The notes: a model not told the origin generated them from the letters alone. A stretch of 32,000 nucleotides of DNA from a cyanobacterium endosymbiont of Epithemia turgida isolate EtSB Lake Yunoko (GCF_000829235.1 NZ_AP012549.1:2010001-2042000); one strand, 5' to 3'. Positions 2,072 through 26,469 are shown, counted from the stretch's first letter. Numbers and translations: made by a program.

Positions 2072-3637
2072 ATGTCCATAATTGATCAACTAGAAATACT
2101 GGATAATATTGTTGTTACGGCAGAACAAATGAGGGAAATTGAAGCCCGAATTTTTGAGAACGGAATGCCTGTAGCAGCCTTAATGGAAAAAGTAGCAATT
2201 TTATTAGCTCGTCGAATACAAGAACTTTATCCCCTGTTTCAAACCTTACGAATAGGAGTTTTAGTTGGACCTGGACATAATGGTGGAGATGCTTTAGTTA
2301 TAGCTAGAGAATTGTATTTACAAGGTTATGATATTTGTTTGTATCAGCCCTTTTCTAGGTTAAAAAAATTAACTTTGCAGCATGCAAATTATGCTCAGAG
2401 TTTAGGAATTACCTGTTATCGAGATATCGAATATATAGAAAAATGTGAGTTGATTATTGATGGCTTATTTGGGTTTGGTTTGACACGATCACTCTCAGGA
2501 AATATTGCTGAGACTGTAAATATTATTAACCAATTACCTATTCCCATCATTAGTATTGATATTCCCTCTGGCTTACATACGGATACAGGAGAAGTTTTAG
2601 GAACAGCTATCAAAGCGACCTATAGTTTTTGTTTAGGATTGTGGAAACTCATTTATTTCCAAGATCAAGCCCTAGACTATATTGGTAAAACAGAACGGAT
2701 TGATTTTGGTATTCCTCCTCAAGATATCTGGGCTATTCTACCTAAACCTGCTCCTATAAAACAGCTGACTTTAAACCTAGCACGACAATTTTTACCCTTG
2801 TGTCGTCCCTTATTAACCCATAAATACAAACAGGGACATTTGTTGCTTATTTGTGGTTCTCGTCGCTATGCAGGGGGTAGTATCTTAACAGGGTTAGGTG
2901 CGCGCAGTAGTGGTGTGGGGATGCTATCGATTGCCATTCCTGAGTCCCTAAAACCTTTGCTAGTCAGTCAGTTACCCGATGCGCTAATTATTGATTGTCC
3001 CGAAACCGAAACCGGGACAATCGCCCAATTACCCCCCCTAGCTACAGCCTTTGACAACTATGATGTCATTGCCTGTGGACCGGGGTTAACCTTGGAGGCA
3101 ACATCGGTCGTCGAACAAGTATTGACAGCACCGTGTCCTCTAGTTTTGGATGCGGATGGGTTAAATATCCTAGCTAAATTAGGAACTATTGACACTTTAT
3201 CAAAGAAAAACAGCCTAACGGTTTTAACCCCTCATCTAGGGGAATTTAAACGGCTATTTCCTTCTATTGAGCATCCTGGCGGAGATAGAATAGCGGCTGT
3301 TCAAGCTGCGGCTAAAGCAAGTGGTACAATAGTTTTATTTAAAGGAGCTAAAACAGTGATCGCTGACCCTAATGGTCATGTCTGGTTAATTTCTGAGAGC
3401 ACCCCCGCTTTAGCACGAGGAGGCAGTGGAGACATTTTAACTGGGTTGATTGGGGGGTTATTAGGGCAAACTACTTCTAGTCTCCATGAGAAAGAGATCG
3501 GCGGAGGAGGAATAGTGGCGACAGCCGCTTTGTGGCACGCTCAAGCGGCTATCTTAGCAGCAAAAGAGCGTACTGAGTTAGGGGTAGATGCTGTCACCCT
3601 GTCCAATTATCTTCACCAGGTTAATTGGAATAATTGA
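2072..3637 (+). CDS. nnr: Bifunctional NAD(P)H-hydrate repair enzyme (epimerase + ADP-dependent dehydratase), YjeF family
   Basis: 521-aa ORF. The N-terminal YjeF_N part carries 'GPGHNGGDALV'. The C-terminal carbohydrate-kinase-like part carries 'GPGL' and 'RGGSGDILTGLIGGLL'. Confidence 0.9.
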   Translation: MSIIDQLEILDNIVVTAEQMREIEARIFENGMPVAALMEKVAILLARRIQELYPLFQTLRIGVLVGPGHNGGDALVIARELYLQGYDICLYQPFSRLKKLTLQHANYAQSLGITCYRDIEYIEKCELIIDGLFGFGLTRSLSGNIAETVNIINQLPIPIISIDIPSGLHTDTGEVLGTAIKATYSFCLGLWKLIYFQDQALDYIGKTERIDFGIPPQDIWAILPKPAPIKQLTLNLARQFLPLCRPLLTHKYKQGHLLLICGSRRYAGGSILTGLGARSSGVGMLSIAIPESLKPLLVSQLPDALIIDCPETETGTIAQLPPLATAFDNYDVIACGPGLTLEATSVVEQVLTAPCPLVLDADGLNILAKLGTIDTLSKKNSLTVLTPHLGEFKRLFPSIEHPGGDRIAAVQAAAKASGTIVLFKGAKTVIADPNGHVWLISESTPALARGGSGDILTGLIGGLLGQTTSSLHEKEIGGGGIVATAALWHAQAAILAAKERTELGVDAVTLSNYLHQVNWNN

Positions 3638-8723: not shown

Positions 8724-10661
8724 ATGGTTTCTAATTCTTTTATCTTCCTTAAACTTTCTCGTCGTGCTGTCTTGAAACTTTTAGGGATTGCATTACCTGC
8801 AGCAATATTAGGCTATTCTCGTTTTAGTAAACCCCAACCTTTTATCTATCAACAAGACAGCTTAAGTTTACCTTCTCGACCAACTAAACCTAAATCTGTG
8901 GTCATAATTGGTGCAGGTTTAGCGGGATTAGCTTGTGCTTACGAATTAAGTCAACGAGGGTTTCAAGTAACTTTATTAGAGAGAGCACCCAATCTAGGAG
9001 GTAAAATTGCCAGTTGGACGGTTCAAGTAGGTAGTGAAACTTTCAAAATGGAACATGGATTTCACGGTTTTTTTCCCCAGTATTATAACCTGAATAGTAT
9101 TGCTCAAGAATTATCCATTACAAATAATTTTCAATCCTTAAAGTTTTATTCTGTTGTCTTTAAAGACAATATTTATAGACCAGAAAATTTTTATCCAAGT
9201 CACTCAACTTTTCCCTGGAATATTATTGATCTTTGGTTTTGGTCTTCTAATCGTCTTCAATGGGGAATTAACTTACTAAAACCCTCTCACTGGAAAGTTT
9301 TTAAAGCTATTACAGGAGTTCAAATTCCTAAAATTTTTACCAAATTTGACAATATCTCTGTAACTGAATGGGTAAAACAAGGTTTTCCTAAAGGAATTCA
9401 TGATTTATATTTTCTTCCCTTTGCTAAGGCTACTTTAAATGCACCTGATATTTTAAGTGCAGGAGAATTATTACAATTTTTCCATTTTTATTTTTTTGGG
9501 AATCCTGAAGGTTTAGCTTTTAGTGGAACTAAAGATGATATGGGAACCAGTTTAGTTCAACCTTTTATTAAAGCAATTCAAAAGAATGGGGGACAAGTTA
9601 TTTCTGAAGGAATTATTAATAAAATTATCTGTAACAACGAAAAAATTATTTCTTTAACTTATCAACAGGGAAACTCTCAAACTGAAGTTCCTTTTTGGGT
9701 AGAACGTAATAATTATTTGACTAATAGTCATGTAACATACTATGGTGCAGGTGATCGGGTTTTCATTGCTACTTCAAATCATCAAGAAGCAATTTCTTTA
9801 ACTTGTACTCACCAAGGTTGTACAGTAAGTAGACAAACGGATGGAACCTTTTTATGTCCCTGTCATGGAACATTATATGATGACAAAGGCAAAGTATTTG
9901 GAGGTCCTGCAAAACAAAATTTACCCCGTTATAAAATAAACCAGCAGAGGGAAACATCAATCCTGTTAATTAGTGTTTCTACTTTATCTTCAAAAAAAGA
10001 TACAATGCTGGAAGCAGATTATTATGTTATGGCTACTGATGTTCCTGGAATTAAGCAGTTATGGGAGTTGATAGAAGGAGATATTAATCCAAAAGTTACT
10101 CAACAAGTAGTAACTTTAACAACAGCTGATCCGTTTGCTGTTGGACGATTTTGGTTTGACCAAGATTTTGACTGGAACTATAGTGATTTTACCTCTGTTT
10201 CGGGATATAAACTAACCGATAGTATTACTCTTTATCACCATATTCAAAATCAGTTTATTGAGTGGTCAAAACACACAGGAGGAAGTGTAATAGAATTACA
10301 TGCTTATTGTTATAAGGAAAAGGATTTTCCAAATCAAGAATCTCTCTTGAGAGCGTTTGAACAGGAATTATATGAAATTGTTCCAAAATTAAAACAGGCT
10401 AACTGCTTAAATAAGGAATTGGTTAACCAGAATAATTTTTCAGGTTATCCTCCTAACAGTTATAATAATCGTCCAAAAACTACAACAGAAATTAAAAATT
10501 TATACTTTGCTGGAGATTGGGTTAAGATGCCTTTTCCTTGTAGTTTAATGGAACGTGCAGTCAGTAGTGGACTTTTGGCGGCTAATGAAATTTTACATCA
10601 AGAAGGGTTACAAAGACGTACATTGTTAACAGTTGCACCATCAGGGTTAGTTAAAATCTAG
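8724..10661 (+). CDS. FAD-dependent amine-oxidase/phytoene-desaturase-like oxidoreductase with an N-terminal twin-arginine signal and an internal Rieske [2Fe-2S] domain
   Basis: 645-aa ORF. It has a Tat-like 'LSRRAVLKLLG' followed by a hydrophobic stretch. The Rossmann motif is 'VVIIGAGLAGLACAYEL...LLE...GGK'. The Rieske box 'CTHQGCTVSRQTDGTFLCPCHGTLYD' (nt 9804-9881) is inserted between the two halves of the oxidase fold. The C-terminal part carries 'YFAGDW'. Confidence 0.8.
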   Translation: MVSNSFIFLKLSRRAVLKLLGIALPAAILGYSRFSKPQPFIYQQDSLSLPSRPTKPKSVVIIGAGLAGLACAYELSQRGFQVTLLERAPNLGGKIASWTVQVGSETFKMEHGFHGFFPQYYNLNSIAQELSITNNFQSLKFYSVVFKDNIYRPENFYPSHSTFPWNIIDLWFWSSNRLQWGINLLKPSHWKVFKAITGVQIPKIFTKFDNISVTEWVKQGFPKGIHDLYFLPFAKATLNAPDILSAGELLQFFHFYFFGNPEGLAFSGTKDDMGTSLVQPFIKAIQKNGGQVISEGIINKIICNNEKIISLTYQQGNSQTEVPFWVERNNYLTNSHVTYYGAGDRVFIATSNHQEAISLTCTHQGCTVSRQTDGTFLCPCHGTLYDDKGKVFGGPAKQNLPRYKINQQRETSILLISVSTLSSKKDTMLEADYYVMATDVPGIKQLWELIEGDINPKVTQQVVTLTTADPFAVGRFWFDQDFDWNYSDFTSVSGYKLTDSITLYHHIQNQFIEWSKHTGGSVIELHAYCYKEKDFPNQESLLRAFEQELYEIVPKLKQANCLNKELVNQNNFSGYPPNSYNNRPKTTTEIKNLYFAGDWVKMPFPCSLMERAVSSGLLAANEILHQEGLQRRTLLTVAPSGLVKI

Positions 10662-18675: not shown

Positions 18676-19332
18676 TTGGGACGAGTTCGTGTTCGTCAAC
18701 ACGTTAATCCGCTTAGTAATAAGTATCGCCAACCAATTACACTTCCTCATTGGGAAGATATTTACGGCAACCTAGCACAATCGCTTCATTTAGATATTGG
18801 ATGTGCAAGGGGAAAGTTCTTATTACAACTAGCTTCTTTGTATCCAAGGACAAACTTCTTAGGAATAGAAATTCGAGAACCGTTAGTGAAAGAAGCTAAT
18901 GAACACCGCGATCGCCTAGTACTGACAAATCTTCATTTCCTATCCTGTAATATTAACCTATTTTTGAATCATTTACTTGCTTCCTTACACCCAAATGTTC
19001 TTCAATGGGTGACAATTCAATTTCCAGATCCTTGGTTTAAACATCGTCACCTAAAACGGCGGATTGTGCAACCAGAGTTGGTCGATACTTTAGCACAATA
19101 TTTAGCCGATGGAGGAACAGTATTTTTACAATCTGATATAAAGATAGTTGCTCAAGAAATGGGTGAACGTTTTTTAGATCATCCTAATTTTGAAAAACAA
19201 CATTCAGAAAATTGGTTATCAGGAAACCCATTTTCTATTACTACAGAGAGGGAAATCGCTTCTCTTAATAAGGGGAAATCTATTTATCGATTGTTGCTAA
19301 AAAATTCAAATAAACTAGTTTCTCTTTATTAG
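18676..19332 (+). CDS. trmB: tRNA (guanine-N7)-methyltransferase
   Basis: 218-aa ORF with 'VRQHVNPL', 'DIGCARGKFLL' and 'FPDPWFKHRH'. The TTG start is supported by an AGGAGG Shine-Dalgarno at 18662-18667, 8 nt upstream. Confidence 0.9.
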   Translation: MGRVRVRQHVNPLSNKYRQPITLPHWEDIYGNLAQSLHLDIGCARGKFLLQLASLYPRTNFLGIEIREPLVKEANEHRDRLVLTNLHFLSCNINLFLNHLLASLHPNVLQWVTIQFPDPWFKHRHLKRRIVQPELVDTLAQYLADGGTVFLQSDIKIVAQEMGERFLDHPNFEKQHSENWLSGNPFSITTEREIASLNKGKSIYRLLLKNSNKLVSLY

Positions 19333-20671
19333 GTGTAGTAAAATCATTAAGCAGAATATTACAATTCTAATTTTTTCGTATATAAAAAAATTAATATTTA
19401 CTTATATTGGATAAGTAACAAATAGTCTCTTAATATAATAAAAAATTTTATCATTAAAATTAATATTTTTATTTAAATATAATTAAACTTATTACTTATT
19501 AGATGATTAATTTTGATGGTGTATAAATAGCTACTTGTTATCTTATCAGTCAAGATAAAATTTATGTCCTCATTCTTAGTGAATATGTATTAAATAAAAT
19601 TATATATAATAAAAAAATTAAACCTAAAATAAATAGTTATTAGGATTTTCACGAATTTATATAATGGACTTAAACTGCTTTTAAAAATTTGTTATACAGT
19701 AGACATATTAACAAAAATACCTAAAATTTTATCTCCCTAATAAATAGGGTAATAGATTAATTGAAAAATTAAATTAATTACGAAGATAAGCTGATAACTT
19801 AACTGACTTTGATTATTTTATAGAGGAAGTTTAATTGAACTAGTATTTGTCTGAAAATTTATAATACTTAATCCAGATAACCTAACAAACTTGAGTTTAT
19901 AAAAATTGAAACTTTAAATCTGAAATAATTATTTTCTTTTGAAAATAAAAGTAAATAATAATAGGTTTTTTAAAATACTATCTAAGCAAAAAATAGCATA
20001 AGTAAAATAATAAATTAATCAATATAAATCGAATACTTATTGTTCAAAATAATTAAGTTGTATTATACTATTTGAGGTCAATCAACATAAATTACTTTAA
20101 ATAAAGTAATACAAAAACATAATTTAAGTGGATAAATTTATCAAAATAAGTGAAAAATATATTATTTTAAGTTATTTAAATAAGGTTTAAATAATAGATA
20201 ATTAAACACGGTTTATTATATAACATAAATTATTATTATTTAATTTATATAAATAATGTTAAACTTATTTAATTTAAATTAACTTTAAGGATGATTAAAA
20301 AATAAGTGGCTTGATTTAAACAATTAATAATTTACAACGTGCTATTGCTAATTTTAAAAATGAATATTATAGCTAATAAGCCCAACATTGACTATACCAT
20401 AATTGATATAAGTACTCATCTAGTAGTAATTAGCTAAAACTTGTTGATGACCAATAATTTTTTGTTATTTTTCTTATTGAAGAGGCCATTGAAATACTTG
20501 ATTAAGTTTTATAAAGTATTTAGGTTTAAGGAATTATATTGCTGAAAAATAAAACAAAAGTGTTCTATGATAACTACAAGTAGTTTACAATAATTTCAGC
20601 CCAAATCAACGCTTTTAAAACGCCTCATAGCGATACGTTACTATACTGTTTTTAGGTTTATATTTTAGGGT

Positions 20672-21053
20672 TTATTCCTGGGCTTCTACTGCTTGATTAA
20701 TCAATTGCTTGTTCTCATAAGGATTAGCTAAATTACTGAAAGCTATCATATTTACTTTGTAAAGTAAAATTGCCTCTTTATAGTTGTAAATTACTAAGTC
20801 TATCTGCTCTTAAGTGAAATAAGCATAACCTAGGAGACTTTAAATTCAAGCATAGTTTTTAAGTTTAATTTTTGTTTATCTTTCAATATCTTTTCTTAAA
20901 GTTTTACTAACTGGATATATAACTTTTTGTCTAAGAGAAGAGTACCTAATTTATAATACTCTTGAGGAGATTAACTTTGTTTTTGCAACTTCTCTTGAAA
21001 CTTAAAAAAGTGACTATACCAAATAAATAAACTATTAGAATAATTTCATTCAT
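20672..21053 (-). pseudogene. Decayed TPR-repeat protein, Ycf37/Pyg7-like (photosystem I assembly/stability factor family)
   Basis: The minus strand starts with ATG at 21053 and an N-terminal helix 'MNEIILIVYLFGIVTF'. After a frameshift in a T-run it reads 'KFQEKLQKQS*SPQEYYKLGTLLLDKKLYIQLVKL*EKILKDK...'. After a second frameshift it reads 'LGYAYFT*EQIDLVIYNYKEAILLYKVNMIAFSNLANPYENKQLINQAVEAQE*'. There are at least 3 stops and 2 frameshifts. The TPR consensus is clear, but the Ycf37 assignment rests on recalled motifs (QEYY.LGS..L.KKLY, NALGYAYF.QEQYDLAI..YKEA). Confidence 0.55.
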
Positions 21054-21105
21054 CAGACTTAACGTGACGGATAATAGACATTGGAACAAACAAGTTTACT
21101 ATTAA

Positions 21106-21891
21106 CTATTTACTATCAACTATTGAGGGAAGTCCCCAAAATGCTGTCCGTTTTTGTAGCCAACCCGACTTTTGCCAACGAAGGATCGCTTGATTTACGC
21201 GATCGCGTAAACTACTATACTGTAAACCTTTGGGCATCACTACCGCTAAAGCTTCTGCTGACAGACGGACAGCAAATTGATGATAAGAAGGATAATCTTT
21301 TACCCACCCGGCCAAAACACTATTGTCTCCTGCAAAGGCATCGGCAGCATTAATTTCTAATAATGTTAAAGCTTCTTGATAGGAATTGACTCCAATCAAT
21401 TGTGCTTGAGGAAATTCCTCACGAATGACAGATATGGCACTAGAGGCTCTAAGAACGGCAATTTTCCCATTAGCTAATCCTTGTAACCCTTTTAGATAGG
21501 ATTGTTTTGCTACAATTCCTGTTCCATCAAGATAGTAATACGGGCTAAAGTCAACTAAACGGTTGCGAGAGGCTGTTACTGTCACCCTAGCAATCACTAA
21601 GTCAACTTTGCCATCAATTATCATTTGTAGACGTTCTTGGTTAGTAACAGGTTGTAAGATCACTGCTTGACGATCACCGAATAATTCTTCAGCTAACTCA
21701 CGAGCGACATCAATTTCAAATCCTTGAAGTTGTCCTTCTTGAGGATAAAATCCTAAAGGGCGAACATTATCTTTAACGGCAATAATTAGTTTACCTCGAC
21801 GCAAAATTTCGTCTAATTCTACTGTTCTAGCCGAACTCATTCCAAAGGTAAAAAAGAAGCTAATTAGACAAGTTAAGAAAACTTTTCTCAT
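21106..21891 (-). CDS. ABC transporter substrate-binding protein, family 3 (polar amino acid / glutamine type)
   Basis: 261-aa ORF with a signal peptide 'MRKVFLTCLISFFFTFGMSSA' and the motifs 'GKLIIAVKDNVRPLGF', 'GFEIDVARELA' and 'DLVIARVTVTASR', as in PBPb/SBP_bac_3 proteins. Confidence 0.8.
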   Translation of the reverse strand: MRKVFLTCLISFFFTFGMSSARTVELDEILRRGKLIIAVKDNVRPLGFYPQEGQLQGFEIDVARELAEELFGDRQAVILQPVTNQERLQMIIDGKVDLVIARVTVTASRNRLVDFSPYYYLDGTGIVAKQSYLKGLQGLANGKIAVLRASSAISVIREEFPQAQLIGVNSYQEALTLLEINAADAFAGDNSVLAGWVKDYPSYHQFAVRLSAEALAVVMPKGLQYSSLRDRVNQAILRWQKSGWLQKRTAFWGLPSIVDSK

Positions 21892-24172: not shown

Positions 24173-24727
24173 TTAAAAGGGTAGATGCGGAGTATAACTT
24201 ATTACTGCATCAATTTGCTGATAAATACCAGCCAGGCGATCTCCGTCTACATGAATTTCAGAAGTGGGGTAATTTTCTAAAATTTCGATCACTTGAATAT
24301 TACGATCAGAGAGTGCAGAAGTTACTAAAGCTCCTCTTAATGATTCCCGATCAGCCCGTCTTGAGGGAGTATGGATTACTTGGCCAACTTTATCTAATAC
24401 GAAATTCCCAGCAAAACTTTTCAGGATTTTGGATAAAAATACAGGATCGACATTCACATTTTGATTGAGAATACGGCGTAAATCTTCAGGTTGTTTATTT
24501 GCCATTTTGAGATAAGAATTTAAGGAAGAAGATATCTCACCTGTTTTAGCTAAGGTACTTAACTCAGAAATACAGACTGACTCTCGTAAAATACTATATT
24601 TTAGTATAATTTTATCAGCTGCTTCAACTGGCAGAGCAGCATAAAGTGCTCCAAAATTTCCTAAGATTAAGTTTAAGCTTAACCGATAGACTAGACTAAG
24701 TTTTATGAACTTTTTCATTACTATCAA
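24173..24727 (-). CDS. DUF1400-like secreted protein (possibly the surviving N-terminal domain of a longer alpha/beta-hydrolase-type protein)
   Basis: 184-aa ORF with a signal-like N-terminus. The pattern 'ILKYSILRESVCISELSTLAKTGEIS..L..YLKMANKQPEDLRRIL...V.VDPVFLSKIL' resembles DUF1400 as I recall it. The start may be the internal MKKF at 24718. Confidence 0.45.
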   Translation of the reverse strand: MIVMKKFIKLSLVYRLSLNLILGNFGALYAALPVEAADKIILKYSILRESVCISELSTLAKTGEISSSLNSYLKMANKQPEDLRRILNQNVNVDPVFLSKILKSFAGNFVLDKVGQVIHTPSRRADRESLRGALVTSALSDRNIQVIEILENYPTSEIHVDGDRLAGIYQQIDAVISYTPHLPF

Positions 24728-25783: not shown

Positions 25784-26469
25784 ATGAACACTATCGACGA
25801 TAAAGCAATTGTTAAAAAATATTTCAATGCCATTGGGTTTGACCGTTGGCGCAGGATTTATGGAGATGGAGAGGTGAATAAAATTCAAGAGGACATTCGT
25901 CGCGTCCATCAACAAACTATTGATACTGTGGTAGACTGGCTAAAGGCTGAAGAAAATATCAGTAGTTTGTCTATTTGTGACGCGGGGTGTGGTGTGGGGA
26001 GTTTAAGCATTCCCTTAGCTCAAACAGGGGCTAGAGTCCTTGCCAGTGATATTTCCGCGAAATGATGGAAGAAGCCGCCCAAAGAGCCCCAAAATCCCTG
26101 TAAGATGCCAGTAATATTGTCTTTACAGTTCAAGACTTACAAAAATTGTAGGGTCAATATCAGACCGTCATTTGTATTAATGCTCTGATTCATTATCCTA
26201 CCGAAGATACAGCTAAAATGATTGCCCATCTTGCCTCGTTAGCAACGTCTCGTCTAATTCTTATTTTTGCTTCTAAAAACCTTTGTTTAACTATCCTTAA
26301 AAAAATCGGCGAATTCTTTCCAGAACCTGGTATAACTACCCGTGTCTCTCAGCATAAAGAAAAGGATGTCATTGCCATTCTAGAAAACAATGGTCTAAGA
26401 GTTCAACGCGAAGCTATGACCAGTACACGTTTTTATTACTCTCGAATTCTAGAGACGACCCGAAGTTAA
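25784..26469 (+). pseudogene. chlM: Mg-protoporphyrin IX methyltransferase, inactivated by one frameshift and two nonsense codons
   Basis: The N-terminal fragment (25784-26065) carries 'KKYFNAIGFDRWRRIYGDGEVN' and 'CDAGCGVGSLSIPLAQTGA'. The C-terminal fragment (26218-26469) carries 'MIAHLASLA...FASK...LKKIGEFFP...[12 protein letters not shown]'. The two are in different frames. The switch maps to the A-run at 26060-26062, and the second frame contains TAA 26101-26103 and TAG 26149-26151. Confidence 0.9.

Follow-up and report, generated by a model that had tools for sequence, protein, structure and literature searches.

A decayed ycf37 gene, encoding a photosystem I assembly factor, in the spheroid-body genome of the diatom Epithemia turgida

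The spheroid body (diazoplast) of the rhopalodiacean diatom Epithemia turgida is a cyanobacterial endosymbiont that fixes nitrogen and is not photosynthetic. A window of 32,000 bp from its genome (NZ_AP012549.1:2010001-2042000) was analysed. The question raised by this window was what the broken reading frames on the minus strand at 20672-21053 had once encoded, whether they still work and when the gene was lost. An earlier note made from the DNA alone had read them as the remains of a Ycf37-like protein, a small membrane-anchored TPR factor for photosystem I (PSI) assembly and stability. Orthologs of Slr0171, the Ycf37 of Synechocystis, are PYG7 in Arabidopsis (At1g22700) and CGL71 in Chlamydomonas. 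The Synechocystis protein associates with PsaA-D and with PSI monomers (PMC11449065, PMC9958174), and cells lacking ycf37 survive but have less PSI (PMC11449065). In the spheroid bodies of E. turgida (EtSB) and R. gibberula (RgSB), genes of photosystems I and II are missing or pseudogenised, and the chlorophyll a (Chl-a) pathway is pseudogenised in EtSB, which has a GC content of 33.4% (Nakayama and Inagaki 2017, PMC5638926). The non-coding DNA of spheroid bodies has been screened for pseudogenes by tBLASTn, giving 225-286 per genome (PMC5638926).

The GC content of the window alternates in blocks. Blocks of 0.36-0.43 carry intact housekeeping genes and blocks of 0.19-0.30 lack long ORFs. The intact genes include cysK, the gene for an NAD(P)H-hydrate repair enzyme, hisB, guaA, trmB, panB, ndhA/nuoH and ndhI. 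Only 16 ORFs of at least 100 aa were present in the 32 kb, so about half of the window consists of AT-rich DNA that is non-coding or pseudogenic. Scans of the whole 32 kb predicted no tRNA gene, and no Rfam family reached the gathering threshold. One intact ORF of 645 aa (8724-10661, plus strand) has an N-terminal half resembling FAD-dependent desaturases and amine oxidases, with weak matches to HpnE and phytoene desaturase, and a Rieske [2Fe-2S]-like segment at residues 353-416. The genome retains this ORF while shedding photosynthesis genes.

The 176 aa ortholog from the free-living unicellular cyanobacterium SU2 was compared to the whole window by tblastn with composition-based statistics. 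Three colinear high-scoring segment pairs (HSPs) were obtained in three frames (Table 1) and all other matches in the 32 kb had E > 0.5. The ortholog of Rippkaea orientalis PCC 8801 gave the same picture (E 1.4e-23 and 2.35e-11). The best HSP scored 91.7 bits compared to at most 21.9 bits in shuffles of 20560-21105 (n = 500, dinucleotide-preserving). The remnant is colinear with all three TPR units of the intact ortholog. The match also takes in parts that are not TPR, namely the N-terminus (MNE..L..VYL.GIV), the KLQEKLQK linker (K.QEKLQK...PQEYY) and the C-terminal tail. The plus strand of the remnant had no ORF of at least 30 aa, no RNA family, no tRNA and no excess of promoter-like sites. 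Promoter and terminator, Rfam and tRNA scans gave nothing relevant to the remnant.

Most of the earlier description of the locus was borne out by these searches. The ATG was found on the minus strand at 21053-21051, and all three of the peptide strings that had been quoted were found on the same strand, spread over two frames. The claim that the protein can only be read by moving between three frames agrees with the HSPs, which fall in three frames, and the orthologs aligned colinearly to the remnant with scores far above the shuffles. The end of the remnant had been placed at 20672. This was incorrect, as homology continues for about 85 nt further, to approximately 20588, and 20672 belongs to the stop at codon 150.

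Table 1. Features of the ycf37 locus, its neighbours and related sequences. Coordinates are those of the window unless another sequence is named.
Feature	Coordinates	Strand	Description
trmB	18676..19332	+	Intact; TIGR00091, 165 bits; second synteny anchor, near ycf37 in SU2 and other spheroid-body genomes
ycf37 pseudogene, whole	20588..21053	-	Ancestral codon 1 to ancestral stop position; from tblastn with the SU2 and Rippkaea orthologs and the codon map against SU2
HSP 1, SU2 ortholog	21053-21000	-	aa 1-18; E 2.4e-14 (joint with HSP 2); 10/18 residues identical
HSP 2, SU2 ortholog	21015-20866	-	aa 36-85; E 2.4e-14 (joint with HSP 1)
HSP 3, SU2 ortholog	20935-20609	-	aa 63-171; E 8e-25
Codons 1-16	21006..21053	-	Intact; ATG and first half of ancestral membrane helix (MNEIILIVYLFGIVTF)
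67-nt deletion junction, codons 17-39	21004..21005	-	Rest of helix and basic linker lost, frame shifted
Stop, codon 50	20971..20973	-	GGA to TAA; TGA at this codon in R. gibba
Stop, codon 75	20896..20898	-	TTA to TAA; window-specific
1-nt deletion, codon 84	20870..20871	-	Second frameshift; codon map against SU2
Stop, codon 92	20846..20848	-	TGA, in second TPR unit
Stop, codon 94	20840..20842	-	TAA, in second TPR unit
Stop, codon 104	20810..20812	-	TAA, in second TPR unit
Stop, codon 150	20672..20674	-	GAA/CAA to TAA; alignment A2 columns 491-493; common to all six spheroid-body sequences
Stop, codon 169	20615..20617	-	TAA, in C-terminal tail
Stop, codon 172	20606..20608	-	TGA, in C-terminal tail
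Amino-acid ABC transporter substrate-binding protein gene	21106..21891	-	Intact, 261 aa; SBP_bac_3 and TIGR01096-type matches; upstream synteny anchor
chlM pseudogene	25785..26469	+	One frameshift near 26056-26060, two in-frame stops; about 228 codons
ycf37 locus, uoEpiScrs1	L004 6787-8236		GC 0.192; nearly erased
P0125 gene call (58 aa)	L012 804-980; L013 509-685		ycf37-pseudogene ORF ending at the shared codon-150 stop
P0131 gene call (60 aa)	L015 (CP192514) 3001-3183		ORF inside ycf37 pseudogene

The gene upstream of the remnant encodes the substrate-binding protein of an amino-acid ABC transporter. Using one genome per species, this protein was 93% identical to the window in the R. gibberula endosymbiont (L001), 91% in the R. 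gibba (L002) and Epithemia clementina (L003) endosymbionts, 85% in uoEpiScrs1 (L004) and 82% in SU2 (L005). The order of the binding-protein gene followed by ycf37 is kept in SU2, an uncultured relative (L006), Lusitaniella, Limnothrix and Rippkaea PCC 8801. An intact gene therefore lies directly downstream of the binding-protein gene in five free-living relatives, which is the synteny that had been proposed as a check. The intact syntenic orthologs are 175-177 aa in length, with 176 aa in SU2 and 175 aa in Lusitaniella.

On the other side, the remnant is separated from trmB by about 1.3 kb (19333-20608) of anonymous, ORF-free debris with a GC content of 0.187. Only 19771-19904 within it could be aligned to the R. 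gibberula spheroid body (77%). No trace of the genes which flank ycf37 in SU2 and Rippkaea PCC 8801 was found in 19333-20608 by tblastn. In Rippkaea PCC 8801, ycf37 adjoins a gene for a 600 aa DUF1400-plus-hydrolase protein. A 184 aa ORF at 24173-24727 (minus strand) aligned to residues 33-170 only of this protein (27% identity, E 4e-11), and a similar 181 aa DUF1400 gene is called in the spheroid-body genome CP192514 (L015). The ORF looks like a truncated gene kept without its hydrolase half and now located across the binding-protein gene.

The identity of the family was examined through the intact orthologs. Among the matches listed for the SU2 ortholog, 120 of 120 were 173-195 aa in length with coverage of 87-100% (97-100% in 119), and nearly all of those with an organism name were cyanobacterial. 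Two clusters carry the name Ycf37, one in UniRef for its Crocosphaera chwakensis member and one (P0086) as the NCBI "photosystem assembly related protein Ycf37". P0086 is a 90%-identity cluster which contains a Synechocystis sp. member. Its identity to SU2 was 64%, with 98% of its length aligned. In the supplement of PMC9958174, Synechocystis Ycf37/Slr0171 (Q55551) is represented by three tryptic peptides, GTAQEYYQLGSIYLDK, LYSQSINLFQK and ALETYQETLAIEPNNK. Although only three in number and 43 residues in total, they aligned colinearly to residues 50-65, 67-77 and 144-159 of the SU2 ortholog with 13/16, 5/11 and 10/16 identities. Against the repaired translation of the window the same peptides gave 9/16, 5/11 and 6/16 identities. 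The N-terminus of the SU2 ortholog is hydrophobic (Kyte-Doolittle 2.48, residues 7-25) and Pfam TPR_1 matched three stretches in the orthologs (E 1.8e-17 in SU2, 9e-19 in Lusitaniella). Based on synteny, the tight family, the Slr0171 peptides and the architecture, the classification of the remnant as a Ycf37 pseudogene is judged sound. The assignment first offered in the earlier note stands, with the remnant as the positional ortholog of an intact gene encoding a helix and three TPR units.

Derivation from another TPR photosystem factor, for example Ycf3 or a Pitt-like protein, is very unlikely. The NCBIfam Ycf3 model NF002725 did match two intact orthologs weakly, but the scores of 16.0 and 39.2 bits are far under the cut-off of 143 bits. 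Ycf3 is hydrophilic, in contrast to Ycf37 with its single transmembrane helix (PMC9958174), and a helix of this kind is present in the ortholog. The ordered match of the Slr0171 peptides also argues against Ycf3 and other factors, and a 286 aa TPR protein encoded near ycf37 in Rippkaea had no match to the window.

The remnant itself was also used as a query. The repaired translation of 150 aa, with stops as X, gave nine candidates and no significant match in a word-indexed protein database. This is not evidence against homology because too few exact 5-mers survive in the decayed query. The longest stop-free piece (45 aa, 20675-20809) gave 17 matches when compared by HMMER to 1.84 billion representatives. 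The top four by E-value were proteins of 600-900 aa with 6-10 TPR repeats, each with 30-39% identity. Such a ranking does not discriminate, since long multi-TPR proteins win by summed repeat scores. The highest identities were to P0125 (67%) and P0131 (71%), both of which lie within ycf37 pseudogenes of other spheroid bodies. Searches with the remnant are therefore consistent with Ycf37 in their identities and weak in their ranking, where multi-TPR proteins come first. P0131 is located in the 3.02-Mb genome CP192514, where its neighbours are again the binding-protein gene and trmB. P0125 comes from metagenome scaffolds whose binding-protein gene shares 86-87% identity with that of the window. 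These two database "proteins" are almost certainly not real, and the public gene calls are flagged here as fragments of ycf37 pseudogenes.

There is a negligible probability that AT-rich debris coding for lysine and leucine resembles Ycf37 only by chance or as any TPR protein would, without being specifically related to it. The ranking of the 45 aa piece would fit such a reading, as would the profile searches, where Pfam-A and NCBIfam contain no Ycf37-specific model and only generic TPR models matched the orthologs and the repaired window translation. A sequence search of the PDB likewise returned only designed or consensus TPRs, OGT and similar proteins, and no Ycf37 structure. Against this, the consensus TPR protein CTPR3 gave no match to the remnant region at E up to 10, while the SU2 ortholog matched far above the shuffled sequences with composition taken into account. 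The N-terminus and linker match too, and the remnant sits exactly where the intact gene sits in relatives. The generic reading, which the earlier note had named as the outcome that would overturn its own, is refuted by synteny and colinear homology.

A codon-by-codon map against SU2 was made from DNA alignments A1 and A2 to list the lesions in the Ycf37 pseudogene. Ten disabling lesions were found over 176 codons, comprising a 67-nt deletion, a 1-nt deletion and eight stops. At least three stop codons had been reported before; stops are indeed present, but the corrected path counts eight, together with two frameshifting deletions. The N-terminal hydrophobic helix that had been described is there in its first half only, the rest having gone with the 67-nt deletion. 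The GC content of the remnant is 0.272 compared to 0.339 for the intact SU2 gene. With these lesions the locus would yield no working product.

The open frame left at the 5' end (20946-21089) would begin at the ATG at 21053 (35 aa) or at a TTG at 21089 (47 aa), and its first 19 residues are hydrophobic (Kyte-Doolittle 1.99). It is nevertheless barely conceivable that this frame has been kept for a small membrane peptide that took on another function. Past residue 16 the peptide is junk read out of frame, which arose with the 67-nt deletion specific to the window, the frame is not conserved in sister genomes, E. clementina has lost the start codon and has a stop at codon 3, and seven promoter-like sites were predicted where 5.4 were expected, which is no excess.

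The Ycf37 pseudogene was compared to its counterparts in other spheroid bodies. The gene was a pseudogene in every spheroid-body sequence examined, each with lesions of its own. R. gibberula has a 56-nt deletion and CP192514 a 122-nt deletion. E. clementina has ATC in place of the start codon and a stop in codon 3. At codon 84, TAA is found in R. gibberula, E. clementina and L012, a 1-nt deletion in two sequences and an intact CAA in CP192514. Codon 150 was TAA in six of six sequences (the window, R. gibberula, R. gibba, E. clementina, L012 and L015), and is GAA in SU2 and CAA in Rippkaea. In Cyanobacterium sp. uoEpiScrs1, a smaller (2.48 Mb) and more divergent genome, only about 210 nt of the 5' part could be detected (nhmmer E 1e-11 and 1e-4). 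This nearly erased locus indicates a gradient of decay among the lineages.

As all six sequences carry TAA at codon 150, the inactivation of ycf37 would predate the split of the six lineages. Most simply, their common ancestor would already have carried the nonsense mutation. Codon 150 was probably the first lesion. The balance tips slightly towards this TAA having been the mutation that first inactivated ycf37, in the last ancestor shared by the sequenced diazoplasts, and so an early event, open to dating, in the loss of photosynthesis. If true, the PSI-assembly machinery was abandoned before the radiation, and genes for chlorophyll synthesis such as chlM stayed intact in some lineages. A concrete sequence of dismantling would follow, to which further genes could be added one by one.

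The mode of evolution was assessed from pairwise divergence among four spheroid-body sequences, scored per ancestral codon position. In the ycf37 remnant the divergence at positions 1, 2 and 3 was 0.22-0.28, 0.12-0.20 and 0.12-0.18. In the intact binding-protein gene it was 0.03-0.08, 0.01-0.03 and 0.12-0.14, a pattern of purifying selection (0.07/0.02/0.12). Second positions therefore change approximately 10 times faster in the remnant than in its neighbour, and the excess at third positions is absent. Together these are a signature of neutral evolution. The direction of substitution was scored at sites where SU2 and Rippkaea agree. In all six remnants GC-to-AT changes (0.29-0.38 per GC site) were about three times as frequent as AT-to-GC changes (0.10-0.13 per AT site). 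These rates give an equilibrium GC content near 0.26, about the present value of the remnant. That the gene is still functional, with its lesions due to sequencing or assembly errors or bypassed by programmed frameshifting or stop read-through, can be set aside with near certainty, as nothing beyond the retained ATG and recognisable motifs speaks for it, and against it are the eight stops and two deletions, the loss of half of the membrane helix, the second-position rate, and five other independently assembled spheroid-body sequences which have their own lesions and all share the codon-150 stop.

A second photosynthesis-related pseudogene, chlM, is present in the window. It was located with a probe and then confirmed by the profile TIGR02021 (ChlM/BchM), on which the repaired translation scored 224.5 bits compared to a cut-off of 158.9. 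The three lesions in chlM compare to ten in ycf37, and its GC content is 0.405, similar to that of intact genes here (approximately 0.40). The GC content and profile score suggest that chlM was inactivated recently. The earlier observation that the ycf37 remnant is the more decayed of the two was correct, with two frameshifts and eight stops in ycf37 compared to one frameshift and two stops in chlM, and the lower GC content in ycf37.

Lesion counts alone are weak evidence for timing. The published record allows a second comparison. Nine Chl-a genes, chlM among them, are reported to be intact in the spheroid body of R. gibberula but pseudogenised in that of E. turgida, where chlM is listed as "S, F" (stops, frameshift) (PMC5638926, text and Table S3). 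The state of chlM in the window matches its published status in EtSB exactly. As ycf37 is dead in R. gibberula too, where chlM is reported intact, ycf37 would have been lost before the split and chlM later in only some lineages. The loss of ycf37 first and chlM afterwards is supported, and the order of loss that had been suggested from the degree of decay is upheld by the stop common to six of six sequences.

We consider it very probable that the locus is a non-functional ycf37 pseudogene in the spheroid body, produced by disuse of PSI, a nonsense mutation at codon 150 and subsequent neutral, AT-biased decay. Ycf37 would have acted as a thylakoid-anchored TPR chaperone for the assembly and stability of PSI. 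When the ancestor of the endosymbiont stopped using PSI, which is the presumed cause, Ycf37 would have become superfluous. Selection on ycf37 would then have ended because a PSI assembly factor has no target without functional photosystem I or II genes. The nonsense mutation at codon 150 would have arisen before the sequenced spheroid-body lineages diverged and been followed by neutral drift under AT-biased mutation and deletion. The EtSB lineage would have added the 67-nt deletion, the 1-nt deletion and seven more stops.

The phenomenon, the gene family and the genome type are already known, and this is an ordinary, expected pseudogene. A single relic matters little, being one more remnant of photosynthesis in an endosymbiont known to have lost it. 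It has modest value as a marker, as the mapping of shared lesions can order the steps by which a cyanobacterium giving up photosynthesis becomes a nitrogen-fixing organelle. ycf37 was not named in the text and supplements of PMC5638926 that were searched, and a literature search found no paper combining ycf37 with the spheroid body or with UCYN-A. The common stop and the resulting order of loss may be an unreported detail, one that adds to the published picture and does not change it.

The ancestral gene of this locus was like that of Synechocystis sp. PCC 6803 Ycf37 (Slr0171, UniProt Q55551), having approximately 175 aa, a single membrane helix at the N-terminus and three TPR units. In contrast to Slr0171, the window copy is dead, with half of the helix deleted, two frameshifts and eight stops, and no product would be possible. 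In algal plastids ycf37 is also reported to have been lost or pseudogenised, for example in kelp (PMC6686309), so that the same gene appears dispensable in some lineages. Those lineages are still photosynthetic, whereas here the loss accompanies the complete loss of photosynthesis. A further parallel is with the spheroid-body pseudogenes of PMC5638926, which are of the same genome type and arose by the same process. They differ in that the Chl-a genes are intact in RgSB, while ycf37 is dead in all of the spheroid-body sequences examined, with one stop in common.
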